From NCBI GenBank assembly GCA_951406725.2, contig OX597815.1, positions 178,684,001 to 178,748,000 on the forward strand: a stretch of 64,000 nt of DNA, read 5' to 3'. Source of the DNA: Octopus vulgaris (lineage: Eukaryota). The notes beneath the pieces were generated by a model that did no database searches, was not told where the DNA came from, and saw only the letters and a list, made by a program, of their open reading frames with translations. The stretch's first letter is position 1; each line of letters starts with the position of its first letter. Of the stretch, positions 9,796-61,290 are shown in pieces. Made by a program: the position numbers and the translations under genes.

Positions 9796-10135
9796 GACAG
9801 GCATCTTTCAGTTTCCATCTAACAAATCCACTCACAAGGCTTTGGTCGGCTGGAGGCTATAGTAGAAGACACATGCCCAAGGTGCCATGCAGTGAGACTG
9901 AACCTGGAATCATGTGGTTGATAAGCAAGCTACTTACCACACAGCCACTCCTGCGCCTATTATTATTATTATTATTATTTTCAAAAAAGCCATTAAATCC
10001 TTAATTTTCCTTGGCTGATAGTCAACATCTAATCTTGTTCTATGATTGAGCAATTAGCAGTAGAAAGGGCAGCCAAACAATAGATAAACCCTACTAATTG
10101 AACCCCTTTTTAATTCAAACAAAGTGAATAACTTA

Positions 10136-10398
10136 TTTACATTATTTACATTTGGTGGATTTTTGTCCTCATCTTGTTTGTTGTTAACACAACATTTTGG
10201 CTGATATACCCTCTAGCCTTCATCAGGTGTCTTGGGGAAATTTCAAACCTGGGTTCTCATTCCTAAGGTATTTTTTAATGTTATTATTATTATTATTATT
10301 CAACTCACTGCCTGGAATCGAACTCGGAATCTTAGGGTTAGTAGTCAGCGCTCTTAACCACTACACCATATACCCATGGGCATATGGCATAGTGGTTC
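10136..10398 (-). mobile_element. Copy of the tRNA-head/hammerhead foldback element (one full arm plus the start of the second)
   Basis: Same sequence as 22630-23130. Palindromic centre CCCATGGG at 10373-10380; HHR at 10186-10231(-) with GAAA changed to AAAA. Confidence 0.8.
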
Positions 10399-19293: not shown

Positions 19294-21131
19294 CTGCAAA
19301 TACACCAAGAAAATAGATAGATACACATTGAATAAAACGAACCAATAAAATGTAACATCAAAGAGCTACCACCTTCCTTCCTTCTTTACCCCAGGGGGTG
19401 GCCAAATGTCTCCCCTATAGTAAGACAACTATTCCCGTCCCCCCTAATATATTCTAACCTCTTGCCTGGCACACAGCCACTTACCTTGGTACCATTCCCT
19501 CTCTCAACTAAGAGGCCTTTGTCTTGCAAGTTACTCGGCAACCGCACTGATGCTGGTGCCACGTAAAGAGTACCTGTGCCAGTGTCACCCTAAAAAGCAT
19601 CCAGTCCGCTCCGTAAAGCGGTTGGAGTCAGGGAGAGCATCCAGTCACAGAGACCCTGCCAAAACAGACAAACGGAACCTGATGCAGCACTCCAGCTGGC
19701 CTGTTCCTCTCAAACCATCCAACCCATACATCATCATCATCATCATCAAAATCATCATTTAACGTCCGCTTTCCATGCTAGCATGGGTTGGACGATTTGA
19801 CTGAGGACTGGCCAACCAGATGGCAGTGCCAGGCACCAGTCTGATCGTGCAGAGTTTCTACAGCTGGATGCCCTTCCTAACGCCAACCACTCTGAGAGTG
19901 TAGTGGGTGTTTTTACGTGCCACCGGCACAAGGGCCAGTCTGGCGGTACTGGCAACGGCCACACTCAAAGTGGTGTTTTTTACGTGCCACCTGCACAGGA
20001 GTCAGTCCAGCGGCACTTGAAATGACCTCGCTCGAATGTTTTTTCATGTGCCAGTAAGGCGACCTTGGTAATGATCACGCTCAAATACTGCTTTTTACGT
20101 GCCACCGGCATGGAAGCTGTACAGCCGCTCTAGCAGTGATCCCGCTTGGATGGAGCTGTTAGCGCTCCACTGACACAGGTGCCGGTCATCGAATTTGGTT
20201 CAATTTCGATTTTCAATGAAAAAATGGATGTTAAATGATGATAATGACATGCAATAGTACTAACAACAGTTATACATTGATAATAAATACTAATCTATTT
20301 TAAAGACAGCCAAGTGTTTGAGGATCTTGTTTCTTTATGAAAAATTGTCTAATGTCCTAATGTCATATTTCTCTCCTTGTAAAAGATCTTATGAGCCACA
20401 AAGATTATCAGCAATCACAAAATTTCAGTCATAAATATGTTTCGGCCCAGCAGACTTGTTCTTCGTGCATCATTGAAATTTCCAAAAATTATTTGGCAAA
20501 CTTCCTGATGATGAAAGTATGGAGTGACCTTTTAAATCGAGAGGGTTATTCAGATTCTGATGTAGTAAAAATCCTTGTGCGAAACACTTGTCACAGAAGC
20601 CAGAATGAAGAAATATGAAGATGGTGTATCAGGTACTGAATTCTTAAGTAAATCTGCCAACCACCTGGAACAAGCATCATAAAAATAGTTTATATTTATT
20701 TATTCAAAATATATGTGAACATATTTATGAGACCTTATATATATAGGCATAGGAGTGGCTGTGTGGTAAGTAGCTTGTTTACGAACCCCATGGTTCTGGG
20801 TTCTGTCCCACTGCATGACGTCTTGGGCAAGTGTCTTCTATATCCTCGGGCCGACCAAAGCCTTGTGAGTGGATTTGGTAGACAGAAACTGTTGTGTATA
20901 TATGTGTGTGTGCGTGTGTGTATGTTTGTACCCCCAACATCGCTTGACAACCGATGTTGGCGTGTTTACATCCCTGTAACTTAGCGGTTTGGCAAAAGTG
21001 ACTGATAGAATAAGTACTAGGCTTACAAAGAATAAGGGATCTTTTTTTCATACAAAAATTTCTCAATGTGTCCCCAAAAGCTAAAACTAATTATCTTAAT
21101 AATTGTTAACATAAAGGGTAACTCTTTAAAT

Positions 21132-21317
21132 CAGTGGTTCTCAACAGTTTTAATATCAGGGTCAGATCCAAAATGGGTATTTGTTTTGTTTTTTTTTTAG
21201 GGGCCCACAACAAAATAAGTAAAACACAAGTCAGTTAAAAGAAAAATTTTGTGAAGGGCCACTGGGAGGATGCTTGAGGGCTGCATGAGCCCTGGGGCCC
21301 ACAGTTGAGAACTACTT
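21132..21317. mobile_element. hAT-type MITE
   Basis: TIRs CAGTGGTTCTCAAC / GTTGAGAACTACTT, with 8-bp TSD CTTTAAAT/CTTTAAAG. Confidence 0.75.
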
Positions 21318-21393
21318 CTTTAAAGAGTGCCAAGACAATGAAATTAACAAAAAACTGTCCAATAAAGTGAAAAGAACATGAAGATTTCCTTAC

Positions 21394-21530
21394 CAAGATG
21401 CAATATATTATGGCAACCTTTGCCAATTGTTTAAGGCTAAGTTTGCTTAAAGCTCGTAATTTAGCCTCTTCAGCTCGTATGGAGGCATTGTATGATAATC
21501 GGGCTATGACTGACTCTTCGGCATAGATAT
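21394..21530 (-). CDS. SLC35F5: SLC35F5 coding exon 6
   Basis: DIYAEESVIARLSYNASIRAEEAKLRALSKLSLKQLAKVAIIYCIL resembles recalled human LSRMSY...KLTATQVAKISFFFCFV. ctttcag acceptor, TTG|gtaagg donor, 137 nt, phase 1-0. Confidence 0.93.
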
Positions 21531-22629
21531 CTGAAAGGAAGAGAGAAAAGGAAAGAATCAGGGCCATGGAAATTCAATTGGGGACAAAGACATGCAAGAA
21601 TACATCCTTATTGTTGCACAGTTCTGAAAGCATCTTCTGTTCATTAAGGATGAATAACTACAAGGTATCAGCTGGCACTCCATTGATTATGATGATGTGG
21701 GTTACAGATGATCTGATCAATGGAACAGCCTGCTCGTGAAATTAATGTGCAAGTGGCTGAGTACTCCACAGACATGTGTACTCTTAACGTAGTTCTCGAG
21801 CAAATTTAGTGTGACGCAGAGTGTGACAAGGCTGGCCCCCATTGAATTACAGGTGCAACTTATTTTTGCCAGCTGAGTGGACTGGAGCAACGTGAAGTAA
21901 AGAGTCTTGCTCAAAGAAATAACACACTGCCAGGAATTGAACTCACGATCTTACAATTGCAAGCCGAATGCCTGAACCATGAAGCCAACATGCCTTCACT
22001 AGCATTGAGATAATGTTGATAGAAATACATTTCCCACTCAACTGCTTCTTTAGTCATACGACCAGTTCAGTGTCATTCACAAAATGCTCCAGATGACTAA
22101 AGACATTACATTATTCATCAAGCAAATCTTGTGACATTCCACATATGACTGGGTAACATCTATACACATGTTCTCTCTCTCTCTCTCTCTCTCTCTGTGT
22201 TTGTGTGTGTGTGTGCGCGCGTGTGTAAGAAATATGCAAGTACATATCCTATGTTGATATATGTGCATATATAATCAATGATATAAAATTCAGATAATAC
22301 ACCCACTTTACTGACAGTTATATAAATGCATCTTCTCCCTGACTTATGGTCTCTTAGACAACTCCTGCATGTATATACATATACACACACACATGTATAT
22401 ATAACAATCAGATCATTCATTTTCCTCCCATGGCTGTGTAAGGGCTTTCTTCTATTTTCTCTTCATAACTCGACGAGGGCACGCGACACATTTATCGGGA
22501 GTTGCATGTATGGATCAAAACAGTTTGATTCAAATTCCTTGGTACTTTGAGTTTCAAAGAGTGATGCATATCCTCGGCTGTTGGAAATTTGAATTCAAAT
22601 TTCCATATATATAAATATATATTGCATTT

Positions 22630-23130
22630 AGTTACATTTAAAGGATATTTGTCCTCATCTTGTTTGTTGTTAACACAATGTTTCAGCTGATATATCCTCC
22701 AGTCTTCATCAGGTGCCTTGGCGAAATTTCGAACCTGGGTTCTCATTCCTGAGGTATTTTTTGATATTATCATTATTCAGGTTACTGCCTGAAATCAAAC
22801 TCAGAATCTTAGGGTTAGTAGTCCATGCTCTTAGCCACTAAGCCATGGCCATATGGTGTAGTGGTTAAGAGTGTGGGCTACTAACACCAAGATTCTGAGT
22901 TCGATTCTTAGCAGTGACCTGAACAATAATAATTATAATAAAAATAATAATAATAACAACAACATCGAAATATACCTTAGAAATGAGAACTCAGTTTCGA
23001 AATTTCTCCAAGACACCTGATGAAGGCTGGAGGGTATATCAGCTGAAACGCTGTGTTAACAACAAACAAGATGAGGACAAATATCCGTCAATTGTAAATA
23101 ATTCCTCATCTCTTAAATATAGAACTGTAT
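22630..23130. mobile_element. Foldback element: two head-to-head arms, each tRNA-like head + (AAT)n + hammerhead motif + tail
   Basis: The left arm (minus, about 22630-22845) and right arm (plus, about 22850-23130) are reverse complements. A box TGGTGTAGTGG, B box GAGTTCGATTC; HHR cores at 22672-22717(-) and 23012-23057(+), both with substitutions. Confidence 0.8.
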
Positions 23131-23264
23131 ACTTTGATAGGTTTCGGCCATTATTGGCCCATGCCATGTCTAACTTAATAGCACCAGGCCACTAAATAAA
23201 GTTAGATGAGATAAGAATGTAGATTTGTCACAATAAGCTGGTGAGAACAAAGAAAATAACTTAC

Positions 23265-23327
23265 CAGAAAGTTGACGAATTTCTAAAAGATTATTAAACC
23301 GCACTATTGTTGTGTTCTCCCGGTCTG
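23265..23327 (-). CDS. SLC35F5: SLC35F5 coding exon 5
   Basis: (A)DRENTTIVRFNNLLEIRQLS resembles recalled human RVRFSNIMEIRQLP. Acceptor tttttcagCAG (tandem), donor TG|gtaagt, phase 1-1. Confidence 0.92.
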
Positions 23328-23589
23328 CTGAAAAAAGAGAGAGAGAAAATAATGGTTTCAAATTTTGGCACAAGGACAGCAATTTCGGGGGAGGAGGTAA
23401 CTTGATTAAATCGACCCCTGTGCTCAAGGGGGATTAATTTAATGCACCCTGAAAGGAAGAAAGGAAAAGAAAATGATTCTGCCAGCTTGCCGCCTTATTG
23501 AGGGAGAAAATATCAGCTCAAAGACATGCCATTCTTCTTCTTCTACTACTACTACTACTGTTGGTTGTTTTATTAAGGTGGTGTATATT

Positions 23590-23770
23590 AATAACATCAA
23601 CGATACCTTAGGAATGAGAACCCAGGCTCGAAATTTCCCCAAGACACCTGATGAAGGCTGGAGGGTATACCAGCCGAAACGTTGTGTTAACAATAAACAA
23701 GATGAGGACAAATATCCATTAAATGTAAATAATGTACATAATTCCTCATCTCTTAAATATAGAACTGTAT
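23590..23770 (+). mobile_element. 5'-truncated arm of the tRNA-head/hammerhead element
   Basis: Matches the 22970-23130 portion of the right arm, including the intact HHR and the tail ...cttaaatatagaactgta. Confidence 0.8.
23641..23688 (+). ncRNA. Minimal type-I hammerhead ribozyme motif, intact core
   Basis: GACAC-CTGATGA-a-GGCTGG[agggtata]CCAGCC-GAAA-CG-TT|GTGTT. Stem I is GACAC/GTGTT, stem II has 6 bp, stem III is the palindrome AACGTT, and GUU cleavage is predicted after 23683. Confidence 0.8.
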
Positions 23771-25046
23771 TTACCTTACCTCATGTATATTTTTTAAGAC
23801 AGTAGGACATAACAGGAGGAAGATTTGGTGGCTATTCCAAGCAGATCAAGCGACCACATTAGGACCCTTCCCTCACTGGCTTGTACAAGTAATGTTATTG
23901 AGGCAGCTGACCGGCAGAGGACAGGGGAATCAGGAGAGTGTCAAAGCATTCGGCGACAGTTATTTCCCTTCACATTCTGAGTTCAAAGCCAAGCTGGCAG
24001 GATTTATCATTACACATTCTTTGTGGGTCACTGAATTAGCATAATTGATTGAATTAACAAGCTCTCTCTCCTTGTACCAATGTGAGAAATCATTATTGCA
24101 GCAGATGTAGTTGTGCTATTAAGTTCTCAGTGAACAGATGTCAATGGTGTTAAAAGACATACTTTACACTCGTTTCAAATTTTGGCAGAAAGCCCACAAT
24201 TTCAGGGGGAGAGGTAAGTCAATTACATCACCCCCAGGGCTCAACTGGTACCCTCTTTATCTACTCCGAAAGGACGAAAGGCCAAGTCGGTCCCAACAGC
24301 AATTGAGCTCAGAATGTAAAACAGACAAAATGCTCCTAAGCATTTCGCACGATGTGTTAATGATTCTGCCAGCTCATCACCTCAGGAGATACTTTATATT
24401 GTTACTGAAATTCTTAACCCAAGAAAATTCCCTCCACCCATCACCAGAGGGGGTAAATTTAAGGATTTCAATGAAGAGATTACTTTTAGGCTAAACATTT
24501 CTTTACAGCTCTATATTTGAGATATGAGCAATTATGTACAGTATCTAGATTTGACGGATATTTGTCATCATCTTCTTTCTTGTGAACACGTTTCGGTTGA
24601 TATACGTATGTATAGAAGACCTTGAGGCATTGATGCTGGACTGAGAAGTGTGGCGGCTGGGTTATGTTGCCGTGGCCTAGGTTGGAACCTGGCCCTAATC
24701 TTTTATTCTTTCACTTGTTCCAGTCATTGGATTGCAGCCATGCGTGTGTATCCTTGTGTCTGTACTTGTCCTTCACCATCGCTTGACAACCGGTGTTGGT
24801 TTATTTATGCTCCCATAACTTAGCAGTTCACCAAAATGCAACTAATAGAATACATATGAGGCTTTACAAAATAGAAAAAATATAATGGGGGGGTCGATTC
24901 ATTCAACTAAACCATTGAAGGCAGTACTCCAGCATGGCCACAGTCCGATGAATGAGACATGTAAAAGCTAAATCAATTAAACTACTACAACATAATAAAA
25001 TGAAAAAATAAAATATTTGAAAAAAAGTAGAAAAAGAAAATCTTAC

Positions 25047-25116
25047 CAGATAAATCATCCGATTCTGTGGAATTGCATTTATCGTCTGACTTGAGTGGCA
25101 CGAAAACTGAATCACC
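25047..25116 (-). CDS. SLC35F5: SLC35F5 coding exon 4
   Basis: ttttctcctccag|GGT...CTG|gtaaga. GDSVFVPLKSDDKCNSTESDDLS resembles recalled human SEPLYVPVKFHD. 70 nt, phase 0-1. Confidence 0.85.
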
Positions 25117-25284
25117 CTGGAGGAGAAAATAAAAATAAGAGTAACTTAAGTTTTACAATAAATTGATTAAGAAGAGTGTTGTAATTTACTTGAAGCATTG
25201 TAGTACAGAAGTAGAATAGTAAATGAAATGAGGAAAGCTTCAAAGAATGCAGAGTGTTTTTTTTAAAAAAACCTTTATATTTGG

Positions 25285-25420
25285 GTTGTGTCTGGGAAGA
25301 GACATTTTCTTTTTGTGCCTTATAATGTAACACACTTATTGGTAAAATTTCCACTTATTTCTTATTTTTATTTTCCTAAAATTTTAGTTGCATCTTGCAA
25401 CCTTTTCAATAGTCTTGACT
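25285..25420 (+). repeat. Unclassified interspersed repeat, second copy at about 41873-42010
   Basis: GTTGTGTCTGGG..GAG.CATTTTCTTTTTGTGCCTTATAAT...CTTGCAACCTTTTCAATAGT occurs at both loci. Confidence 0.75.
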
Positions 25421-25977
25421 CTCTTTATATTTTGGGTTATCCAAAATGGCAGGGAATTATGTAAACATACATTTCTTTGACTGTATTCTACTAGAGATAG
25501 GCCTTTGCGTCTGATATATAAAGGTTTTTCTTAAACTTTCTGCATTATTGGCAGCAAACTTCTTATCTTACCACACAGCCATGCCTGCACCAATGTGCAC
25601 TGTGCATGCACAAAAATGTACATATCTGTGCAGATAGGTGTGAAAATGTCAATGAAAGGAGAGAGGAGGAAACTGGAGAAGATAGAAGGTACAAGAGAGG
25701 TGTGAAATCGTTCTCCTCATCATCGTTGTCGTCGTTTAACGTCCGTTTTCCATGCTGGCATGGGTTGGATGGCTTGAATGAGGGGTGGCAAGCCGGGAGG
25801 CTGCACCAGGCTCCAATCTGATCTGGCAAGGTTTCTACAGCTGGATGCCCTTACTAATGCCAAAATATAGAATGTTTTGGGCAGGACTAGACAAGAAATT
25901 GGGGAGGAAAGAGAAGAGGGGAAAGAAAATGAATAACTGAATCTTTTATTATTTGCAGGATATTGAAAAAGGCTCAC

Positions 25978-26034
25978 CAATAGCTTGTCCACTTCAATGG
26001 GGTGTTCTTCAACAGGTTCAAATCTAGGAAGAGT
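25978..26034 (-). CDS. SLC35F5: SLC35F5 coding exon 3 (cytoplasmic loop, poorly conserved)
   Basis: tttcag|ACT...TTG|gtgagc, 57 nt, open and phase 0-0 (TLPRFEPVEEHPIEVDKLL). It fits between exons 2 and 4, but sequence similarity is weak. Confidence 0.7.
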
Positions 26035-28807
26035 CTGAAATAAATAATTGTCATTGTTAATGATAACGATAATGATTTCTGAAATTAGTAAAAGACTAAT
26101 GAGTTTTTGAAAAGAACATAATTAAATCAAGCTCAGTATTTCACTGCTACCATTTTATCAGATGCTAGAGGAATGAATGTTGAAGTTGACAATGATGGAA
26201 TATCCCCATAACTAGGGGTTGGGGGGCAGAGGTACTAGAAAGCATTTTGTATGGCATCGATGATTCTGCCCAATGTAAGGATAAGAAATAGCTGGCTACT
26301 GTGGGATTTGAATTCAGAATATAGTGAGAGCACACAAATGAATTGAGAGAAAAGTTAGGTATAAGAGGGAAAAGAAAAGATTGTACTGGCACGTGTGACT
26401 TTACTTGTACTTGTGATGGCGTTCAGCCAGGGCGGGTTGAGCCAGCTTCTTCTCTGGTCCTAACAGCATCACGAACCATGGTGTCCCACGCTCAACGGTC
26501 CCGTGCGAGGTCACTAGAGATAGCGAGCCATTCACGGTTCCATCTGTGCAGACCGACCACCTGCGGACCTGAGAGTTCGGAGAGGTCCTCTTTTATCGTT
26601 GTTACCCAGGTTTTCAGCTGCCCGCGTGTGACGCATATGGAGGATGTCAGTTATATACTAAGTGTCAAGTGGAAGAGGGAATTCTGGGAAGATATGGAGT
26701 AAAATAGCGAAGACTGATTTCTTAAGAACTAAAGAAGATGATAACAAAGGAAGGCCATGACAATGTGATATGCCAAGTTGAAGAAGACCCATCAAACCCC
26801 TGTGAGTATGGTAACACAGATATCAAAACCGGTGATGGTGGGAGGTTAGGAAGTGTTATATTGTACATTTGGGTCTCGCCCTCCCTCCATATTTAGGTCC
26901 CCATCTACTACCAGTCTACGCTCTTCATGTTCTGCCCGTATCCATCACCCTCTCTTCTAATTATTGCATCACATCCTTATTGCACCACTTGCTTAACAAA
27001 TGATAGCAATGGATCTTCTGTCTATATCCAATACCCCTACCATCAAGCACCTCCTCTCTCTTTCCCCTATAACTCATTGATACTCCCCCCCCTCTCTCTC
27101 TCTCACATCATGCAACTCTTCTGCTCTGCATCATTGCCTTTCCTTTTCTTACAATCAATCTCTCCAAAGTTGTGATTTTCAACCGTTTTAATATCTGGGC
27201 CAGATCCAAAACATGGATCTTTTTTTAAGGGGCTCATTTAAGAGTACCTTCAATCATTGGGCTTGCAAAGACCTATTGAGATAAGTGAAGTTGTTGTCGT
27301 GGCTGATGACAGTACTGCCTGATTGGCACCTGTGCCAGTGGCACGTAAAAAGCACCATTCGAGCGTGATCATGGCCAATGCCACCAGACTGGCCCCTATG
27401 CCGGTGGCACATAAAAAGCACAATCCAAGTGTGACCGATGCCAGTACAGCTTGACTGGCCCTCATGCTGGTGGCATGTAAAAAGCACTCACTACATTCTC
27501 AGAGTGGTTGGTGTTAGGAAGGGCATCCAGCTGTAAAAACATTGCCAGATCAGACTGGAGCCTGGTGCAGCCTTCTGGCTCACCAGCCCTCAGTCAAACT
27601 GTCCAACCCAATACCAGCATGGAAGGCAGACATTAAACGATGCAAAGGCGGTGAGCTGGCAGAAAACATTAGCACGCCAGGTGAAATGCTTAACGGTATT
27701 TCGTCTGCCGTTACGTTCTGAGTTCAAATTCCGCCGAAGTCGACTTTGCCTTTCATCCTTTCGGGGTCGATAAATTAAGTACCAGTTACGCACTGGGGTT
27801 GATGTAATCGACTTAATCCCTTTGTATGTCCTTGTTTGTCCCCTCTATGTTTAGCCCCTTGTGGGCAATAAAAAAAAAAAAAGACATTAAACGATGATGA
27901 TGATGATGATGATGGGCCACACCAAAAAGTAAAGCACAAAGAAAATTTATACTCATAGACGGAAAACTGTCAGAAGGATGCTCAAGGGCCAAATACAGTC
28001 CTAGGGCAGTAGTTGAGGAGGGCTGTTCTACACACATTACTCCTTCCTTTATCACTCAGTGTTGATGTCTACCACTTTTTATCTTCCAGCATCCTGCTTA
28101 CCTCTCTCCATTCACTCTTTACCTCCATCACACCACAAATACCATATTGCTACTCAATCCCCCACCCCCCGCCAACAAGCATGTCACTGCCCATCACTGT
28201 CTCCTTCCATTCTTCCCTCCTCTCACTTCTAGAACTTTCTCCTTTCATACTCTTCTCTTACCATCACCATCCCGATTTTCTCTTCTATCCACCTTTTCAG
28301 TCATGTTGCCTTGAGATAGCAAAGACAATGCAAGACAGAGAGGATATTTTTGGGTCCTTCTGGGTACAAGGTAACCCCTCTCGTACTCAGCACCACAATA
28401 GAATGTACACAGTGTACGCTGTATGGCAAACACATGGAGACAATGTAGGGTAGAGAAAACAGTCTTGCTGAGAACAAGGGACCTTTCTAGATCCCACAGT
28501 CGGTTTGGGGTTGGTTTCTACAGCTGGATGCCCTTCCTGATGCCAACCACTTTACAGAATACTCCACTGGGTGATTTCTATGTGGCACTGGCATAGGTGC
28601 CTTTTACATAAGCAATCCCAGTACATTAGTGGAGAAATGTCTAAAGTCAAACTTGCAAACAGCTATATTTATCTTGGGTCTTTTAAAGAGAATTTAAGAT
28701 GAGTCTGTCAGCTGCCAAAAACATCAGATATAGAAATTAATTTGAAATGTGATGAAATGTTCTTGCAAACATCACATTTTACTGAAGATTCTAAAGGCTG
28801 TTCTATG

Positions 28808-29362
28808 AGCATATGGCGTAGTGGTTAAGAGTGTGGGCTACTAGCCCCAAGATTCCGAGTTTGATTCCAGGCAGTGACCTGAATAATAATAACATCAAAT
28901 AATACCTTAGGAACGATAACACAGGTTTGAAATTTCCCTAAGACACCTGATGAAGGCTGGGGGGTATATCAGCCAAAACATCATCATCATCATCGTTTAA
29001 CATCTGCTCTCCATGCTAGCATGGGTTGGACGATTTGACTGAGGGCTAGCGAACCAGATGGCTGCACCAGGCGCCAGTCTTGATCTGGCAGAGTTTCTAC
29101 AGCTGGATGCCCTTCCTAACGCCAACCACTTCGAGAGTGTAGTGGGTGCTTTTACGTGCCAGTCAGGCGGTACTGGCGACGACCTCGCTCGAATCTTTTT
29201 ACACATGCCAACGGCACAGGTGCCAGTAAGGCGACGTTGGTAACGATCCCACTCGAATGGTGCCTCTTACATGCCACAGGCACGGAAGCCAGTTAGCCAC
29301 TCTGGTTGTGTTAACAACAAACAAGACGAGGACAAATATCTGTCATATGTAAATAATGTAAA
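28808..29362 (+). mobile_element. tRNA-head/hammerhead element arm interrupted by an RTE-type insertion at 28981-29305
   Basis: Head GCATATGGCGTAGTGGTTAAGAG..., HHR 5' half up to 28980, resuming as TTGTGTTAACAACAAACAAG at 29306. Confidence 0.8.
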
Positions 29363-30973
29363 TCTAAAAGCTGTTGCCCACAAAAGGATTTGAACCCAGC
29401 ACTGTAAGGAAAAGACAAGATTTGCTAACTACACACAATGATTTCGGTGCATTCAGGAGTATGTTGGCCTTGCTTGCCTGTCGTCTGTTTACATCAAGCT
29501 AGACAGACACAAGAACAGCTAAAGAGATTAGTGAAAGACACAGCAGTTATGATGATGTGATAGGAACTGCTGACTCTACAGCCTAGAACTAGCAAGCTGC
29601 TGTTTTGGTTAGCTGCTGTAGAATAGCCACATAACAGTAAATAAGTGGGAGAAAAGGAAAAAAAAAACAAAAAACAACAGTGACAACTCTATATAAAGAG
29701 ACTTTTTTATGTAGCAGTATTATTTCCTTTTTCAGTATAATTATTGATTTTTTTTTTCTTCCAGTAACACCATTCTGTGTTGTGTCATTCATTTGACAGA
29801 CATTTGTGACATTCATTATTATAGCAATGAACAGCTAGAATCGTTAAAAAGGAATATCCCAACAAAATAATAGTCAAATGAATGGAACCCAAAAGAGAGG
29901 AAAGAATATCGTCTCTGTTCTGTTTTTCTTTATCAGCTTCAATTATTTTTTTTTCTTCTTATCAGGAGTTTGACTTGCTAGAAACAGAAGCCAAATCTTC
30001 TAACCACACTTTACCATTTAAAAATAAGGCAAGTCATTGGATAAATTGGTCTTACATAGGCCTAAAAAAAAAAAATCACAGTTGGATTGATTTGGACTGG
30101 TGCTCTGCGGGTTCTGATGACAAGGGTTCTAGTTGGTCCGATCAAGAGAATAGCCTGCTCATGAAATTAACATGCAACTGGCTGAGTACTCCACAGACAT
30201 GTAGTTCTCAGGGAGTACCAGCAGGACACAGAATGTGACATGACTGGCCCTTTTGAATTACTGGTACAACTCATTTCTGCTAGCTTACTCTTCTTGTTTC
30301 AGTCATGTGACTGTGGCCATACTGGAGCACCGCCTTTAGTCAAGCAATTCGACCCCAGGACTTATTCTTTGTAAGCCTAGTATTTATTCTATCGATCTCT
30401 TTTGCCGAACCGCTAAGTTACGGGGACATAAAACACACCAGTATCGGTTGTCAAGTGATGTTGGGCAGACAAACACAGACGCACAAACACACACACATAT
30501 ATATGCATATATACGACAGGCTTCTTTCAGTTTCCGTCTACCAAATCCACTCATAAGGCTTTGGTCGGCCTGAGGCTATAGTAGAAGACACTTGCCCAAG
30601 GTGCCACGCAGTGGGACTGAACTCAGAACCATGTGGTTCGTAAGCAAGCTACTTACCACACAGCCACTTCTACGTGGCCTAGTGGACTGGAGCAATGTGA
30701 AATAAAGTGTCTTGCTCAAGGACACAGCATGCTGCTGGTAATTAAACTCAGGACCTTACAATCGTAGGCAAACAACTTAACCACTAAGCTACTTAATATT
30801 CTTCCCTTTCACATTTCTTTTATGGTAAACCAATTCCCTTTCAGTCCCTCGCCCCTGTTGTTTATGTCATTCGTATCCAAGGTTATTATGGAAAGATTAT
30901 CATATCCACTTCTTTTGCGATAATAATCCTTTGATTTTCTTCTTTCCATCTGCTTCTTTCTGACCATCTTTAA

Positions 30974-31194
30974 CCCTTTCATTACTGTATTTATTTTGAG
31001 ATGCTCCGTATTTCTTTCAATTAATTTTTAAAATAACAAATAATTTAATAAAATAACTTAGTTATCATTCAGCTAGTGTTAGGAACCTTAATTGTGACTA
31101 AGGTTTGGTGGAAGATTTTAATTCAAAACTTATGAAAACAAGACATTTGTACTTAGAGCCAGAGGTGGTTTCAGCCAGGTTAGTTTCAAAAGGG
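30974..31194. mobile_element. piggyBac-type MITE family A
   Basis: TTAA|CCCTTT...AAAGGG|TTAA. Other copies: 16355-16557, 16578-16728, 31226-31441, 36724-36943, partial from about 49450. Confidence 0.85.
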
Positions 31195-31225
31195 TTAAGA
31201 ATTGTGTCTCTATTATATATTTTAA

Positions 31226-31441
31226 CCCTTTTATTACCATATTTCTGTTGAGATGCTCTGTGTTTCTTTCAATTGATTTTAAATATAACAAAGAATTTAG
31301 TAAAATAACTTAGTTATCATTAAGCTAGTGTTAGGAATATTAATTGTGACTAAGGTTTGGTGGAAGATTTTAATTCAAAACTTATGAAAACAAGACATTT
31401 GTACTACAGAGCCAGTTTCAGCCGGGTTCGTAATGAAAGGG
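31226..31441. mobile_element. piggyBac-type MITE family A
   Basis: TTAA TSDs and CCC...GGG termini; near-identical to 30974-31194. Confidence 0.85.
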
Positions 31442-31512
31442 TTAAAGGGCTGACTTCCTCTGGAATCAAAACGGATTCACAGAAGGAAACCCAGACAATT
31501 GTTTTACTTTAA

Positions 31513-31732
31513 CCCTTTAGTGTTTAAACTGGCTGTATCCGGCCCAAATATTCTACACATTTTATGCTCAAACTGGCCAGAACATGCATCTCACACCTAC
31601 CCTGCAATGTCATTCTAAAAATAAGCAATAACATCTTTCCTATCTTGAAGGTACAAAATAATATCAGATAAATTTTTTTAAATGTGAATAAATAAGGGTT
31701 ACTGTTGACAAATTAATCTGAATGCTAAAGGG
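31513..31732. mobile_element. piggyBac-type MITE family B
   Basis: TTAA|CCCTTTAG...CTAAAGGG|TTAA. Other copies: 14977-15195, 34143-34359, about 42368-42589, and about 63887 to the window end. Confidence 0.85.
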
Positions 31733-32267
31733 TTAAATAATCCCAATATGTAAAAATAAGTCAGCTTTTCTTGGGAAATGTTTCGTACTTAACTGTTTTA
31801 CATACAGCTTTGAACCGTAGGATATGTCATGGCATACTAATTGTTTTAAAGGAAAGAAATTATTCTGAAGAGTGAACGGACATAAGACAAAACAGCAGAT
31901 TATGGTATTAGAGTCATTGGAGATTAATGCTAATCCACGTGCCCAGGTTACGTTCAATGTGGTCTTTTATTTGCTAAACAATATCCAGCAACCTTAGCTG
32001 GAACTGGAAACGGGAAAATCAAAGAAAAACAAAAATGAAATACAAAACAATATTAATGAATTATTGCTCATACTAATAAGAAGCAACCGTTCTTTGCTTT
32101 TATGAGTTATCAGATGCTACAGGTAGCATCTGAATTGGAGTTACATCCTCGAGAACGATTCTTGCTGGATCTTCATTTAACCCCAAGTTAAGCCACACAG
32201 AGTTTTGCCTTTCTCGTCAGAATTGTGAGTGACGGACGTCAATCACTGTGTTTCTAAAAAAAGCAGT

Positions 32268-32415
32268 TTAGGAAGGAAGGAGGGAGGGAGGGAGGAAGGA
32301 AAGAAAGAAAGGAAGGAAGGAAAGAAGCAATGAAGGAAAGAAGGAAGGAAGGAAGGAAGGAAAGATAGGAAGGAAAAAAGAAAGCAGTTTAGGAAAGAAA
32401 GAAAGAAAGAAAGAA
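32268..32415 (+). repeat. (GGAA)n/(GAAA)n polypurine tract
   Basis: Almost pure purine run of about 150 bp. Confidence 0.9.
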
Positions 32416-32454
32416 ACCAATTAAATATCCCAAGTGGAACACTATTGTACATAC

Positions 32455-32586
32455 TTTACTGTTCCGGCTGCACTGTTGTCTCCAGGGCTTCAAAACCAGG
32501 AAACCCAACAGGTATACCATAAACATTGCAGACTTTGCATATGCTATGAAGAATGGCTTGATGTAATGCTCTTGTTTAAAGATATA
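32455..32586 (-). CDS. SLC35F5: SLC35F5 coding exon 2
   Basis: YIFKQEHYIKPFFIAYAKSAMFMVYLLGFLVLKPWRQQCSRNSK, matching recalled human [30 protein letters not shown]. ttttgcag acceptor, AAA|gtatgt donor, 132 nt, phase 0-0. Confidence 0.95.
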
Positions 32587-32875
32587 CTGCAAAAGAAGAA
32601 GAAGAAACGGACAAGGATGAATTCATTAGACCATAACATATTGGGTGATTTCTGATTGCTATTTACGAGTAAGCTATCAGCCCCAAGGAAACCTGATGGG
32701 TTTTCTTTGAGCCAATAAACTGGAAGCAATTCAACAATCCGACGTCAGGATGATTTCAAGATGCAACTAATTAATGGGAGAAGTTGGAGAGTTTACAACA
32801 ACAACGAGAAACAAAGAAAGAAAATATATGCCGTGATTTCATTATCATCGTTTAACGTCCATTTTCTGTGCTGGC

Positions 32876-33290
32876 ATCATCATCATCATCATCATTGTTC
32901 GACCGTGGTCGAAACAATGGAATTTACTATGTTACACCAGACTTCACGGTCCATCATAGCATTACGGAGGTCCTGTTGCTGGATACCTGTATCCCTGGAG
33001 ATTACGTCAGGGTAGGAGAGTGTGGCACCATCTGGTATCGCGAGTAGATGGCTTCCAGAGGAGAAGGGTAGAAATTGCCTCGTTTTCAGCTCTACAACAA
33101 TGTCCAGCAAATTGGACTCTTCTACCTTTCACAAGAGATGATACAGGTGGGAATTTCCCATATATTTGTACTTTGGTTGGATGATGCTTCCACGAGAGAT
33201 TTTAAGCTCTCATAAGGAGGCGAGTGTAAGTTCCATCCAACCGCCTCTCAAGCTTCTTTGATAACGTCCATTGGTTCGACTGTCCAACCA
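32876..33290 (-). mobile_element. RTE-type LINE 3' fragment with (TGA)n tail, inserted in another repeat
   Basis: YPDVISRDTG...DLRNAMMDREVWCNIV* resembles an RTE C-terminus. It is flanked on both sides by halves of a (GAT)n-tailed repeat. Confidence 0.7.
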
Positions 33291-35436
33291 TGCTGGCATG
33301 GGTTGGACAGTTTGACAAGAGCTAGCAAGATAGAGAGCTGCACCAGGCCCCAACTGTCCGTTTTGGCATGGTTTCTATGATTGGATGCGCTTCCTAACAC
33401 CCACCACTTTACAGAGTATACTGGGGACCATTTACATGGCACCAGCACTGGTGAGCTTTGTACATGGCACCAGCACAGGGGCTTTTTACATGATTTGAAA
33501 AACCTGAGGACTAGCATCAAATTCTAGCACTCTTTGAGGTGAAAGTACTAGGTAGTGCCATGCAAAGTAAGAAAACTTCTGGCTTCTCCACCCTGGGTTA
33601 GGATAAGATATCGTAATACTGGAGTTTAATGGAATAAAGCTCTTCGTTATCATCCAACAGAAAGAAAGGACTAACCAGAATGTCGTTTCACTCAGACACT
33701 AGTAGAAAATTAGACTGTAAGATCTCAGTAAAGACACAAGGGGAGGGGGAGATCAAACTCTCTTAATCACATCATCATCATCGTTTAACGTCCGCTTTCC
33801 ATACTAGCATGGGTTGGACGATTTTGACGAATCAGATGGCTGCACCAGGCTCCAATCTTGATCTGGCAGGGTTTCTACAGCTGGATGCCCTTCCTAACAC
33901 CAACCACTCCGAGAGTGTAGTGGGTGCTTTTTACATGACACTGGCACGGGAGCTAGTCAGGCGGTACTGGCAATGACCTCGCTCAAATCTTTTTACACAT
34001 GCCACCGACACAGGTGCCAGTAAAGCGACGCTGGTAACGATCACACTCGAATAGTGCCTTTTACATGCCACCGGCATGGAAGCCAGTTAGCCGCTCTGGC
34101 AACGATCAAACTCGGTAAAAACAAAATATACAGCACTATTAACCCTTTAGCATTTAAACTGGCCACATCAGACCCAAATATTCTACCTGTTTAAGGTTCA
34201 AATTGACCAGATCCAGCCTCTCTTACAAATCCTATAATGTCATTCTAGAAATATACAATCACATTGAAATCTCAAAGCTACACAATAATGTATGATTAAT
34301 TCAAAGCAATGTGACTAAATAAGTATTGCATTTGACAGAATGTTCTGAATGCTGAAGGGTTAACCGAACTGCCCCAGCATGGCCACATGTTACTGGTTAA
34401 AACAACTTTTTATTAGCATTGTTTGGAAGCTTTACACAATTTCCTTTTGCAAGAACTTCAACCAGAGAGTGCAACCGATTTATGGATCGTTTTTATAAAT
34501 ACCAAAAACATCAAAATAACTCTTTTTCTCTTTTTTTTTTCTCTTTTACTTGTTTCAGTCATTTGACTGTGGCCATGCTGGAGCACCGCCTTTAGTCGAG
34601 GAAATCGACCCTGGGACTTATTCTTTGTAAGCCCAGTACTTATTATATTGGTCTCTTTTGCCAAACCGCTAAGTTACGGGGACGTAAACACACCAGCATC
34701 GGTTGTCAAGCAATGCTAGGGGGACAAACACAGACACACAAACACACACATATATATATATATATATATACATATATACAACAGGCTTCTTTCAGTTTCC
34801 GTCTACCAAATCCACTCACAAGGCATTGGTCGGCCCGGGGCTATAGCAGAAGACACTTGCCCAAGATGCCACGCTGTGGGACTGAACCCGGAACCATGTG
34901 GTTGGTTAGCAAGCTACTTACTACACAGCCACTCCTGCGCCTAAACTGTTTGGTTTCCTTTCTGTCTCGCCTTTAATTTGCCATATCATGTACCTAAGTT
35001 GTTTGTAACCTCAGACGTGCTTTCAAAACACCTACGCATTAAGCCAATGAGGGGAATTTCCACACACTTGTTCAACCTACTAGAAAAAAACCAAAATAAA
35101 AACAGGCAAATCTCTTTCAAGTAATACACTGATATCATATTAAAGACAAGGATCCATTGGAGAGGATGGTCCTTTTACACTGTGGTTGCTAGAAAAACAA
35201 AACAAAACAAGGTAAAAAAAACCGATTGTCAAAGCTGGTCTATTCAACTCTTTCATAACGTCTACTCTTTTACTCATTTTTGTTTCAGTCATGCGACTGT
35301 GGCCAAGCTGGAGCACCACCTTTAGTCAAACTAATCGACCCCAGGACTTATTCTTTGTAAGTCTAGTCTCTTTTGCTGAACAGCTAAATTAGGGCGACGT
35401 AAACACACCAACATCGGTTGTCAAGTGAAGGTGGAA

Positions 35437-56595: not shown

Positions 56596-57772
56596 TTAGG
56601 TACACATGTGAAAGTGGCCCTAAACATAGAGGAGACAAACAAGGACAGACAAAGAGATTAAGTTGATTACATTGACCCCAGTGCGTAACTGGTACTTAAT
56701 TTATTGACCCTGAAAGGATGAAAGGCAGAGTCAACTGCAGCGGAATTTGAACTCAGAACGTAGTGGCAGATGAAATACCTATTTCTTTACTACCCACAAG
56801 GGGCTAAACACAGAGGAGACAAACAAGGACAGACATTACTAGAATAAAATACATCCATAGTAATAGTGTGGCGTGGATGTGCAGTGAGAAGCTTGTTTCC
56901 CAACCACATGGTTCTGAGATCAATCCCACTGCATGACATTGCGTTAACAACAAACAAAATGAGGACAAATATCCGTCAAATGTAAAATCATTACTGTTTA
57001 TTATTACTCAGCCTACACAGTTGCTGATATTTTTTTTATATTTCATTCGCCATGTGATGTGTTCTGTACAATAGATTTGTAATTGCATCTAAATTTAATA
57101 AAAGATTTCATCAACAAAGTTCAAGAGATAAGCTTTTGTGTGTTTTAATTAATATGGTTCTAAAAATCTCTCTCAAATATGAAATAGATCATTAAATAGT
57201 TTAATGTTGCAATTTTAAAATATTATAGTGTTCTTGAGCAAGTCTCATTACTCCACCGGTAATTGTCCTTCCTAACAACAATAAAAAAGAAAATTTTGTG
57301 AAGAAATTTTAAAATACTTGTCAAGCATGGCTGTGCGGTAACAAGATTGCTTTCCAACGACATGACTCTGGGTTCAGTCCCACTGTACGACACCTTGGGT
57401 AAATGTCTTCTACTATAGCCTCAGGCCAACCAAAGCCTTGCGAGTGGATTTAGTAAATGGAAACTGAAGGAAGCTTGTTGTGTGCATATGTATATATGTA
57501 TATCAGAGTGTGTGTGTGTGTGTATTTGTTTGTCTGTCTGTCCACCACCACTTGGCATCTAGTATTGGTGTGTTTACATCCCCATAACTTAAAGGTTCGA
57601 CAAAAGAGACTGACAGAATAAGTACCAAGCTTTAAAAAATAAGTCCTGGGGTCGATTGATTCAGCTAAAACATTCTTAAGGTGGTGCCCCAGCATGGCCA
57701 CAATCTAATGACCAAAACAACTAAAACATAAAAGAACTATTTCATTTGAAAAGCCATTTAACATGTTTTATT

Positions 57773-58861: not shown

Positions 58862-59612
58862 TTTCATTATTTACATTCCTGGTGGGATTTTGAACCCAAC
58901 CCTGGGTTCTTATTCCTAAGGTATTTTTTGCTGATATTATTATTTATTCAAGGTACTGCCTGGAATTGAACTCAGAATCTTGGGGGTAAATCAGCCGAAA
59001 CGTTGTCATCATCATCATCATTTAACATGTTTTCCATGCTGGCATGGGTTGGACAGTTCGACTGGAGTCTGGGAAGCCAGGAGACTGCACCAGTCTCCAG
59101 TCTGATCTGGCAGTGTTTCTACAGCTGGATGCCCTTCCTAATGCCAACCACGCCGAGAGTGTAGTGGGTGCTTTTTATGTGCCACCAGCACAGGGGCCAG
59201 AAGGGGCTGGCAATGACCACAATCGGTTGGTGTTCTTTTACGTGCCACCGGTACGGAAACCAGTCAAGGTGGCGCTGGCATCGGCCACGTTCAGATGGTG
59301 CATTTTATGTGCCACCAGCATGGGGATCACAACTACTATTGCCATTTGACTTTGTTTTTGATGTACTTGACTCAGTAGGTCTCCTCAAGCATGGCATGTC
59401 GCCCTATGATCCAAGGTACTTTTGAGTGGACTGGTTATGCAACACTGGTGTAGGTTACAGCTGTGAACTCACTTTATTTGCCGGGTCTTCTCAGTCACAG
59501 CATATCTCTAGAGGCCTTGGTCTTTTATCATTGCCTCTGTGAGGCCCAACGTTTAACAACAAACAAGTTGAGGACACATATCCGTCCAATGTAAATAATG
59601 TACAGAATTCTT
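58862..59612. mobile_element. Internally deleted foldback tRNA-head/hammerhead element interrupted by an RTE-type insertion
   Basis: A minus-arm remnant at 58862-58987 is fused to plus-arm CAGCCGAAACGTTGT (58992-59006). The tail resumes at about 59553. Confidence 0.65.
59007..59551 (-). mobile_element. 5'-truncated RTE-type element: ORF end plus long 3' UTR with internal ~60-bp repeats and (GAT)n tail
   Basis: Begins LGLTEAMIKDQGL*RYAVTEKTRQIK*, then continues into the abundant GGTTGGCATTAGGAAGGGCATCCAGCTGTAGAAAC...AACCCATGCCAGCATGGAAA(GAT)n repeat. Other approximate copies: 281-640(-), 3485-3970(+), 5972-6410(-), 11330-11590(+), 19745-20210(-), 27270-27640(+), 28981-29305(-), 33770-34115(-), 37560-38100(+, two), 40985-41310(-), 44880-45095(-), 47720-47870(+), 48358-48670(-), 61790-62090(+), 63225-63594(+). 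Confidence 0.75.
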
Positions 59613-61290
59613 CATGACGGTGGGTCAGTAAAGTAAGTTACAAAACAAAAACAATGAATTGAGTGGTTTTGATCTATGATGGGCCTCAAAGGAAGTCCTC
59701 ACAATAACTCAGACATGATATTTAGGGGCATATTGAGCTATCTTTCTGTAACACTCCTTAGCATACCACTGGGTTGCCCTTATGTACTTGAATAGAGTAA
59801 GCCTTATACTAAATTCACTGGTCATTGTTGCTGCTATGCTGTTGCTGTTGAGCGAAGCGGTCTTCGTCCTCTTGGGAGAAGTCCGAAATGTGGTCCTTTG
59901 CTATTCGTAAGACCCGCAGAAGAGAAAGCAGGTCAACCCCCAACACCGAGAGCATCAACAGATGGATGAATGCACATCCAGGCTCAGCGGTTGCGTAGGA
60001 AGTTGGGGACAAGAAACAGGAAGAAAAGAGTGAGAGAAAGAGTACAACAGGCGTTGCCACCGCTCCCCCCTGCTGGAGCCTCGTGGAGCTTTAGGTGCTT
60101 TCACTCAATAAACACACACAACGCCCGGTCTGGGAATCGAAACTGCGATCCTCCGACCACGAGTCTACTGCCCTAACCATTGGGCCATTGCGCCTCCACT
60201 GTTGCTGCTATGAACCTCCTGGTAGCACAAAACCCTTTTTGGCAGCAAACCTAACATGTTGACCTGTAAGCAGTAAGAATAACAACTGATGCAGTGGCCC
60301 AGTTGCCAGCTATTCTTCTGGTGCTTGTGACAAGACAGAAAATGGTTGAATGGGAAGGAAAGGAATGAACAAAGACAATGCAGAGAAAAGAGGATTCCCT
60401 TTAGTTTTTGTCAAGGATAAGACGACCTTGTTATGCTGCGTCATGATAAAGAGCGCTTTGCACAATCTGTAAAGTGGTCAGAGAGAGAAAGGGCCCCCAG
60501 CCATGGAAACAATGCCAAAAATGAAAGAGCAGATGAAACATTTTGAAAATGTCAAGAAAGGAGCTAAAAATAAAAACTGACTCAGACTTTACTAATTTGT
60601 CTAATCAATGGCAACAAAGAGAAGCATGTAAAACAATGAAGAGAAAGCCAATTATAATTACCCCCCTCTCTCTCTCTACACACACACACACACTATATAT
60701 ATATATATATATTATACTTAAACAAAAATTCTCTTGTCTAAGAATAATAAATTTGTGCTCTACAAAAGTATGGAGTGACCCATTAGATTAATGTAAAGTT
60801 GTTTTTATTATAACATAAAAAACAAACATTTATATATATATGTATATATATATATATATAGTACAAATTAAGATAGGGGTTATGGGTGTAACCCACTATG
60901 GGGTATCATTATAGGCTGAAACAGCTGTAAGAAGTAATTTCTGGATTTCAATAATTTATAATATGACTTTTAAAATCTGTATTTGTATTATTATCTTATC
61001 TATTGATTTATGTAATATATTTTATGCATTTGATGTTCTCATTTGTAAAAATGAATAAATAATCTAACATTATAATATCCGTAAGTTGATGAACAAACTA
61101 AATTTGTTTCTCCATTTTCTCATTTGTATTATATATATATAATTCATAAATGAGGGCAAAGGAAAAGATTTCTAATGCCAAATATGCCGAAAAATTGGAC
61201 ATATTGTCCATTAACCATATAATTTTTTCACAATACGCACGCTACTCGAAAAAAGGTTGACAGACATTTCTAAAAAATTCCATTATTACC

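Follow-up and report, generated by a model that had tools for sequence, protein, structure and literature searches.

The inverted pair of repeats at positions 22,628 to 23,129 of a 64,000-nucleotide (nt) stretch of the Octopus vulgaris genome (assembly GCA_951406725.2, contig OX597815.1, positions 178,684,001 to 178,748,000 of the forward strand; hereafter the window, to whose numbering the coordinates below refer) is almost certainly composed of two pseudo-long terminal repeats (pLTRs) of a Penelope/Poseidon-type retroelement that encodes a reverse transcriptase (RT) and a GIY-YIG endonuclease domain. The pLTR carries a head derived from tRNA-Arg, and on balance we favor the reading that this head serves as an RNA polymerase III (Pol III) promoter and that the pair arose as one foldback insertion. 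An earlier note, made from the letters of the sequence alone, had described the locus as an independent non-autonomous hybrid of a short interspersed nuclear element (SINE) and a hammerhead ribozyme, with the divergent pair as its unit. Neither part of that description held: each arm is the pLTR and the open reading frame (ORF) start of the autonomous-type element, and the head-to-head arrangement is the inversion known from Penelope elements, which arises as they insert.

Anatomy of the head-to-head pair

Two divergent arms, 75% alike, occupy 22628-22846 on the minus strand and 22847-23129 on the plus strand, and both follow the order first described for them: a tRNA-like head, (AAT)n, and a ribozyme of the form GACAC-CTGATGA-A-GGCTG..CAGCY-GAAA-xxxx-GTGTT. 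The right tRNA-Arg-like head, a likely Pol III type 2 promoter, spans 22847-22923, with its A box TGGTGTAGTGG at 22854-22864 and its B box GTTCGATTCT at 22899-22908, and is followed by an (AAT)n/(AAC)n spacer (22924-22963) whose length varies strongly between copies. The body of this arm (22964-23102) is the start of the ORF, with the ATG at 22983 and a frame that in less decayed copies reads M-R-T-Q-V-R-N-F-P-K-T-P-D-E-G-W. Inside the ORF lies a minimal type-I hammerhead (23012-23057; stem I GACAC/GTGTT, CTGATGA at 23017, stem II GGCTG/CAGCT, GAAA), and a Penelope tail of ~27-30 nt, present on the right arm alone, follows at 23103-23129. The left arm, on the minus strand, comprises a tRNA-Arg-like head at 22776-22846 (16.9 bits with a profile of host tRNAs) that begins ~5 nt inside the tRNA-like region, a short (AAT)n spacer at 22766-22775, and a body at 22628-22765 that holds the ORF start (ATG at 22746) and a decayed hammerhead (CTGATGA at 22712-22706), and terminates, tail-less, at the short 3' end. 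The two heads meet at 22842-22849 in the junction GCCATGGC, where the sequence folds back at the head's 5' edge.

A ribozyme is thus present in each arm as had been claimed, but in neither is the core intact: the left arm reads GAAACATT, and the right arm, GAAACGCT, has CGCT where CGTT is expected. What had been taken for a second B box, GGTTCGAAA, lies in codons Q-V-R-N of the Penelope ORF, and the supposed AT-rich tail consists of coding sequence together with the Penelope tail. The flanks of the 22628-23129 pair showed no target duplication, their best match being 4 nt, and there is no ORF piece of the family within the 64-kb window.

The arms as the pLTR of a Penelope/Poseidon element

Penelope-like coding sequence lay directly upstream of the arm in two of the first 30 loci. 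In a protein search for the family ORF (2,656 candidates, 150 scored, 30 loci fetched, including the query's own locus and one duplicated pair), the head was directly 3' of the ORF end at 26 of the 30 loci, the body at 26, and one or the other at 29. An autonomous-type Penelope sharing the hammerhead and the tail, for which the earlier note had suggested a search, was thereby found at the ORF loci, and the proposed mobilization by a Penelope RT was upheld. At the opposite end of the ORF, copies continue past the tail into the ORF start at 19 places, and in 4 of the 18 that were fetched (L320, L328, L330 and L334) head, (AAT)n and body stand directly ahead. The body continues into the ORF in L085 and L091 as well, the latter being a near-complete unit which, on walking upstream, proved to consist of body, ORF, head and body.

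The order of the unit is head, (AAT)n, ATG, hammerhead within the ORF, the remainder of an ORF of ~2.4 kb, a 3' untranslated region (UTR) of ~60 nt, and the next head. The ATG is in the body, 33 nt 5' of the ribozyme core, and both the hammerhead and the supposed second B box fall within the first 52 ORF codons, the ribozyme being translated as T-P-D-E-G-W-R-V-Y-Q-P-K-R-C-V. The N-terminal peptide that it encodes is conserved in the closest relative, P0001 (45% identical, E=3e-16), the RT of which is 55% identical. In residues 18-33 of P0001 the two strands of stem II are affected by a W to R and a Q to W change, where the Arg codon, if CGN, would mean a compensatory change of U-A to C-G.

The family protein matched RVT_1 (E=2.4e-10). 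An Anolis protein, aligned with 97% of the query at 35% identity, has the same three Pfam domains as the other top matches. YVDD and DKG motifs are present in translated copies, as is, toward the C terminus, a CVY..YKG region containing C-C-H-H residues; the Pfam GIY-YIG model gave no match to the family protein, and that domain is assigned from motifs and homologs. The linker between RT and GIY-YIG, read directly in translated copies, has no Zn finger, and placement in Penelope/Poseidon follows from this linker criterion as set out in PMC8557442. The family also shows what is expected of an endonuclease-bearing (EN+) Penelope, namely a single RT ORF with a C-terminal endonuclease, a tail at one end, a hammerhead in the pLTR, partial tandems (L091) and frequent inverted 5' copies.

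As in a SINE, there is a tRNA-derived 5' head with A and B boxes, and copies begin at the 5' edge of the head; however, this head is also part of an ORF-bearing element, whereas a tRNA-derived SINE has only its 3' end in common with its autonomous partner, and no independent SINE with the family head was seen in 30 head-selected loci. Among 27 distinct insertions chosen by the ribozyme 23-mer only (the first on contig C1), none formed a short head-to-tail tandem array of the retrozyme or SM-alpha kind, none reached the ORF, and 19 had an inverted partner. Head-to-head pairs are thus far above chance, and this test from the earlier note did not refute its reading.

The tRNA-derived head and its probable role as promoter

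The derivation of the head from a tRNA, with Pol III boxes, was confirmed. Eighty-six heads scored 63 against host tRNA-Arg(ACG), compared with 28±4 for shuffles; this was the best score among 34 host tRNA sequences, and all seven host Arg genes ranked first. The panel consisted of 34 distinct sequences of seven types, with many isotypes outside it, and its ACG genes were located by a motif. ARAGORN at relaxed settings called 14 of the 86 heads versus 1 of 258 shuffles, and at default it found no tRNA in the window. The majority A and B boxes are 45 nt apart and fit the type 2 pattern.

A hand-written A/B-box pattern was dropped after failing its positive control (1/30). It was replaced by a profile from host tRNAs that detected 20 of 29 positives and, being built from seven tRNA types, could miss other heads in relatives. 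The profile places the head after 20 of the 29 ORF ends of the family, and it detected no tRNA-like head after any of 22 related Penelope ORF ends in metagenome contigs, which were those of 79 loci with both an ORF end and 250 nt or more of sequence beyond it. Downstream of L308, ARAGORN at relaxed settings made a call that was rejected because it is on the opposite strand and has poor stems, and tRNA matches lying 400-500 nt ahead of the truncated ORF matches in L244 and L293 were not linked to those matches.

The head is likely to be the promoter, with use of Pol III inferred, because copy number changes abruptly at its 5' edge, non-inverted insertions begin there, and the unit lacks runs of four T (T4), the Pol III stop. 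Exact 20-mer counts were 5,148 for the head, 896 for a word 57 nt upstream and 749 a further 112 nt upstream, at exact-match rates of 16/45, 15/42 and 16/41, which corresponds to a fall in copy number of about 6-fold across the edge. Five of the eight insertions without an inverted partner also begin at or just inside it. On the 2.5-kb sense strand, no T4 run is common to the copies in any of 2,526 columns, and over 70 kb of copies 20 runs were seen versus 86±9 expected, or 0.29 per kb against 1.24 expected from the copies' own codon usage. Controls had no overall deficit (host pieces of long interspersed nuclear elements (LINEs), 27 vs 30; 50 related Penelope ORFs, 203 vs 195). Related metagenome Penelope ORFs with no or few T4 runs are L245, L249, L257 and L239; a tRNA-like head was not found behind L245, L249 or L239, and L257 is too short downstream.

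A number of observations weigh against a Pol III promoter. The 5' boundary coincides with a palindrome that could give foldback under any promoter, and the drop in depth from head to UTR was about 2-fold in organism E, a related organism. The T4 significance is modest (P~0.02-0.05 for the full unit and 0.08-0.15 for shorter copies) because the copies descend from one ancestral sequence, and 3 of the 50 related Penelope ORFs are also without T4 over 1.4-2.3 kb. Two raw unstranded RNA runs of organism E contained 11,609 and 8,481 family reads, equal on both strands, with no pile-up of starts or ends, and 63-68% of the matched reads continue into unlike sequence; these reads show that the family is present in RNA, not a Pol III transcript as such. 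None of the loci examined, in a search that was not exhaustive, held an intact full-length copy. Kojima argued from Pol III processivity that autonomous partners of long terminal repeat (LTR) elements must use Pol II (PMC10886601), and a capless Pol III RNA and a length of 2.5 kb are both problems for a coding element. Penelope promoters are described as lying in the pLTR and driving the downstream unit (PMC6765202), which fits the location of the head but not the polymerase. Taking these points together, we consider it probable that the short templates begin at the head; that Pol III transcribes the ORF in full length we regard as somewhat less likely than not.

The foremost rival explanation is that the head is a passenger, an old piece of a tRNA or SINE in the 3' UTR, with a Pol II promoter in the pLTR, as in other Penelopes, and the palindrome causing the RT to fold back. 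The boundary does lie on TGCCC-AC-GGGCA, perfect junctions keep the loop of this palindrome, and palindromic inverted junctions occur in other Penelopes without any tRNA (PMC3846280); the missing RNA start pile-up and the modest T4 statistic are also what a passenger would give. We nevertheless consider it unlikely, since the insertions that begin at the head edge include those five without an inverted partner, both boxes fit the type 2 pattern at tRNA spacing though the rest of the head has diverged from tRNA-Arg, the head immediately precedes (AAT)n-ATG, the expected site of a pLTR promoter, and T4 is absent from the unit, unlike in the controls.

Formation of the pairs and a proposed mechanism

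Of 109 arm views, 95 showed the tail on a single arm, and target duplications, which the earlier note had proposed to count, were recognized as 8-15 nt common to the flanks in 23 of 37 pairs, some of low complexity (mean flank sharing 8.6 vs 4.4 for shuffled pairs). Since pairs usually have one tail and shared flanks, each is likely a single insertion. The flanks are AT-rich (0.71 vs 0.64). The 3' ends are bimodal, at body positions 141-148 and 170+, about 27-30 nt apart, which corresponds to about ORF nt +122 to +129 or +151 to +156; Frangieh and colleagues showed the two 3' ends of Anolis Poseidon to be internal RT start sites early in the ORF (PMC11167929). Genome-wide, 364 perfect junctions were centered on the element's palindrome TGCCC-AC-GGGCA, and in nearly all of the perfect junctions listed the center was AC/GT or AT. 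Head-to-head pLTRs with junction palindromes have been reported for Penelope of the rotifer Adineta vaga by Arkhipova and colleagues, who read them as self-priming (PMC3846280).

More variants are common to the two arms of a pair than to arms drawn at random (21 vs 11.4±3.0), with 15 shared variants versus 5.6 in six ORF-bearing pairs, and 9 shared private variants in L064 against a null of 2.5 (maximum 6). The sharing is partial, which tells against a single template: at body position 58, three pairs were concordant and six discordant. Because the arms share more, though not all, variants than random arms, foldback of one cDNA is favored over twin priming as the origin of the inverted arm. 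In twin priming, which concerns the inversion only, two RNAs would be copied from staggered nicks and the cDNA ends would anneal through the shared palindrome. This could account for a similarity within pairs that is barely above that of random arms (0.926 vs 0.923) and for the several variable sites at which paired arms disagree, and Anolis Poseidon, a predicted dimer, does cleave and extend both strands (PMC11167929); yet one tail per pair is unlike an independent choice of start sites and the private variants shared in L064 exceed the null, and we regard twin priming as quite unlikely.

If the head is a Pol III promoter and the pairs are foldbacks, Pol III would start a few bases upstream of the tRNA-like +1, within TGCCC-AC-GGGCA, and would read a unit that has no TTTT stops. 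If Anolis Poseidon is a guide, the protein would bind the RNA near the ORF start, nick AT-rich DNA and begin reverse transcription inside the RNA at two sites near the ORF start (+125 or +155). Copying back from such an internal start would reach the RNA 5' end only, giving a SINE-sized product of ~280 nt, and the self-complementary cDNA end may then prime the inverted second arm. ORF-bearing copies would arise solely by read-through of tandem units, and a minor class of copies appears to derive from RNA already cut by the hammerhead. The SINE-like look of the family would be a by-product of Penelope chemistry on an RNA starting about 250 nt upstream of the RT start. We advance more tentatively, and would not yet back, the fuller scenario in which an autonomous Penelope captured a tRNA-Arg gene as promoter, lost all Pol III terminators and was transcribed end to end by Pol III, spinning off tens of thousands of SINE-like foldback copies. 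Very unlikely, in our view, is the tenable form of the earlier note's reading, in which solo head-bearing pLTRs are true SINE masters, Pol III-transcribed in place and re-mobilized in trans by the Penelope protein, and non-autonomous parents gave rise to most copies: head-bearing copies exceed ORF-bearing copies about 6-fold, rotifer pLTR sequences alone are enough for mobilization in trans (PMC3846280) and both RT start sites lie within tailed solo copies, but the heads face outward, so that a transcript from one excludes the other arm and a pair cannot copy as a pair, the junctions differ from locus to locus, the head was not seen with a different family body in the 30 head-selected loci, and Anolis Poseidon needs RNA to ORF nt +172 (PMC11167929), beyond the tail, which solo copies would lack if the same holds.

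The hammerhead ribozyme

The minimal type-I hammerhead with a palindromic ACGT was confirmed, the core and both stems being present in 49 of 151 copies. The suggested Rfam check did not recover it: there was no hammerhead or tRNA model match in the window at E<=1, nor any at locus L020 at E<=10. Sub-threshold Rfam matches to miRNA hairpins, MIR2606 included, are caused by the inverted repeat. Minimum free energy folding of the intact copy formed stems I and II, not the active core. In a test set beforehand, the ribozyme core was no better kept than its flanks (0.936 vs 0.948 and 0.951), contrary to what the earlier note had anticipated, a result that carries little weight because dead copies decay neutrally. 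Of 192 copies, 154 have T and 33 have A at the variable N7 base of the core, body position 58 (23021 in the window); this is the commonest non-CpG variant within the ribozyme and also changes Asp to Glu. Downstream of 5 of the 22 related ORF ends there is the same minimal ribozyme with different paired stems.

Minimal Penelope hammerheads are described as cutting poorly and needing dimers (PMC4209133), and the ribozymes of a pair, being on opposite strands, cannot form a dimer within one transcript. In Anolis Poseidon, ribozyme cleavage was dispensable for insertion in vitro (PMC11167929). Possible traces of cutting were sought in 54 arms from the first 100 matches of the 20-mer just downstream of the ribozyme, without the exact ribozyme 23-mer and not in earlier sets. 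The body start was reached by 42 of them, whereas 6 begin at body positions 89-92, the predicted cut, and none at 66-88 or 93-103; one of the six is a deletion and two are one pair, which leaves 4 independent events, out of 10 truncations, within a span of 4 nt. L318 and L323 likewise begin at the predicted cut site. The cluster of 5' ends is suggestive of cleavage at the predicted site, and most copies derive from uncut RNA. This cluster is confounded by the palindrome TGTTAACA, and the cut triplet is GUU, both of which weaken the case.

In the window, this second palindrome lies at 23054-23061, just 3' of the predicted cut, so that a self-complementary word stands at the start of each of the two predicted RNA 5' ends, and foldbacks centered on TGTTAACA occur in L323 and L383/L384. 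L323 (oriented positions 919-999) and L332 (781-833) contain internal tandem joins in which a segment from body position 90 follows ORF-start sequence, as if the RT had jumped templates at the end of a ribozyme-cut RNA.

Abundance, age and spread

The high abundance that had been predicted was found. The ribozyme 23-mer has 5,798 exact matches in the genome (G000), the 20-mer just downstream 11,919, and the head 20-mer the 5,148 given above, with 0 for the reversed control of each. Word counts divided by exact-match rates (31/105 for the ribozyme 23-mer and 39/111 for the downstream 20-mer, from copies not chosen by those words) give roughly 20,000-34,000 arms, decayed. Six insertions were present in 400 kb, sampled as forty 10-kb stretches at round coordinates, which is consistent with this estimate within wide limits; the density in the window is above average. 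In all probability the family is old and no longer active, because divergence from the column majority is 4.3% outside CpG sites and the two longest copies read are both broken.

Sequencing runs under five organism labels contain 33-49% of the sampled words of one copy, with no RNA run among those listed, and reads of organism E have loose ends at each of the two 3' ends and at the head-edge foldback. One family copy adjoins a 373-aa open frame with the seven-transmembrane receptor motifs DRY and NPxxY (L066:230-1348, minus strand); four similar receptor-type ORF matches cluster at G000:C18:46.28-46.39 Mb, which suggests a duplicated segment.

Other copies and neighboring repeats in the window

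Besides the pair, the window contains seven further pieces of the family. The pieces that had been listed at 23590, 24504-24605(-), 28809 and 56936 are indeed family members, although the first is not a full arm: it is a single headless plus-strand arm (23590-23769) with a tail and an intact hammerhead core, GAAACGTT (23643-23688). The piece at 24504-24605 (minus strand) is an old 3' body fragment with tail, that at 28809-29363 (plus strand) is a head and body interrupted at ribozyme stem III by a foreign repeat of ~325 nt (28980-29304), and that at 56936-56986 (plus strand) is a body fragment from about the ribozyme cut region, beside another repeat. A minus-strand arm at 10133-10398 has its body at 10133-10275, its head at 10299-10380, a palindromic junction and a stub of ~20 nt of a second arm; the junction reported at 10373-10380 is thus a full palindrome, but the second arm claimed for it is a mere stub. 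CCCATGGG is most simply a CpG-decayed form of CCCACGGG. The inverted pair at 58897-59615, the plus-strand arm of which is interrupted by another repeat (59007-59552), had been read as a deleted head-to-head junction at 58988; its actual join, at 58984-58988, connects a head interior to a ribozyme interior.

A repeat with an (ATC)n end interrupts two of these copies (28980-29304 and 59007-59552), and a third copy (56936) adjoins another repeat. All three contacts are at body positions 85-93, in ribozyme stem III, a possible insertion hot spot. Other tRNA-like SINE families in the window (60188(-), 37085, 41505, 21985(-) and repeat families D4-D16) differ from it in head as well as body, and the family head was found in none of them.

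Relation to known elements and implications

The closest parallels are with other Penelopes. Like the family, Anolis Poseidon PAc has a single ORF of RT and C-terminal GIY-YIG, a hammerhead overlapping the ORF start, two early 3' ends about 30 nt apart and AT-rich flanks; unlike it, the family has a tRNA-Arg-like head and (AAT)n before the ATG, an ATG upstream of the whole ribozyme, a unit without T4, and a predominance of short pLTR-only copies (PMC11167929). Adineta vaga Penelope shares a 31-bp tail on one repeat, target duplications of 8-10 bp and first codons in the pLTR, but has TATA/Inr-like motifs and a low copy number (PMC3846280); the word tRNA does not occur in the main text of that paper. 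The metazoan Penelope hammerheads have the same core boxes, extra base between 9 and 10.1, G10.1-C11.1 pair, stem II of 5-6 bp, short stem I and palindromic 15.2-16.2, and in Schistosoma dual motifs lie 100-700 bp apart on opposite strands; in contrast to the family, no tRNA head is part of the description given for them (PMC4209133).

Outside Penelope, Schistosoma SM-alpha is likewise a short abundant repeat with a Pol III promoter upstream of a type-I hammerhead, but it is non-coding and arranged in head-to-tail tandems, whereas the family is a coding element with head-to-head pairs (PMC6765202). The TRIMp3 elements (Helenus, Ajax, Cassandra) also hold a small-RNA-derived Pol III promoter inside a terminal repeat; they are non-autonomous LTR elements, whereas here the head is in the repeat of an ORF-bearing Penelope (PMC10886601). 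Animal non-LTR retrozymes are, like the solo copies of the family, non-coding hammerhead derivatives of Penelope pLTRs, but form head-to-tail tandem arrays (bioRxiv 10.64898/2026.07.22.740005), and the main text of that preprint contains none of the words tRNA, Pol III, octopus or mollusc. Foldback, a tail on one arm, palindromic junctions, target duplications and the ribozyme are therefore established for Penelope already. What looks new is the tRNA-Arg-like head with intact A and B boxes in a pLTR, the drop in copy number at this head, and the T4-free unit.

The octopus SINEs OK, OR1 and OR2 were reportedly described by Ohshima and Okada in 1994 as abundant and derived from tRNA-Arg. OR2 is a CORE SINE (PMC4758252). 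An octopus repeat annotation lists Penelope-like elements at 6.83% of the sequence in 190 families, and the word hammerhead is absent from the one supplement of it that was searched (PMC13282606). Titles and abstract starts of the literature searched held no description of a tRNA-derived head in a Penelope pLTR or of a cephalopod hammerhead repeat; Repbase, Dfam, SINEBase, the supplements of the bioRxiv preprint, the 1994 report on octopus SINEs and the Zenodo library belonging to PMC13282606 lie outside that search and could hold the sequence.

Repeat annotators are likely to mislabel copies of this family as SINEs, miniature inverted-repeat transposable elements (MITEs) or miRNA hairpins, the pair itself scoring on MIR2606 below threshold. 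Its tens of thousands of natural junctions bear on how Penelope elements replicate, including where RT starts, how inversions form and whether hammerheads cut in vivo. A tRNA-derived promoter would be unusual for a protein-coding retroelement, and if the head is a working promoter, an RT would be made from a capless Pol III transcript, which is deemed unlikely in current thinking on Pol III repeats. It would also provide a direct route from an autonomous element to a SINE-like family via the element's own promoter. If this is true, the family would represent a retroelement mRNA made by Pol III, a LINE and SINE in one, with traces of its Pol III start and of its ribozyme cut both preserved in its genomic copies.
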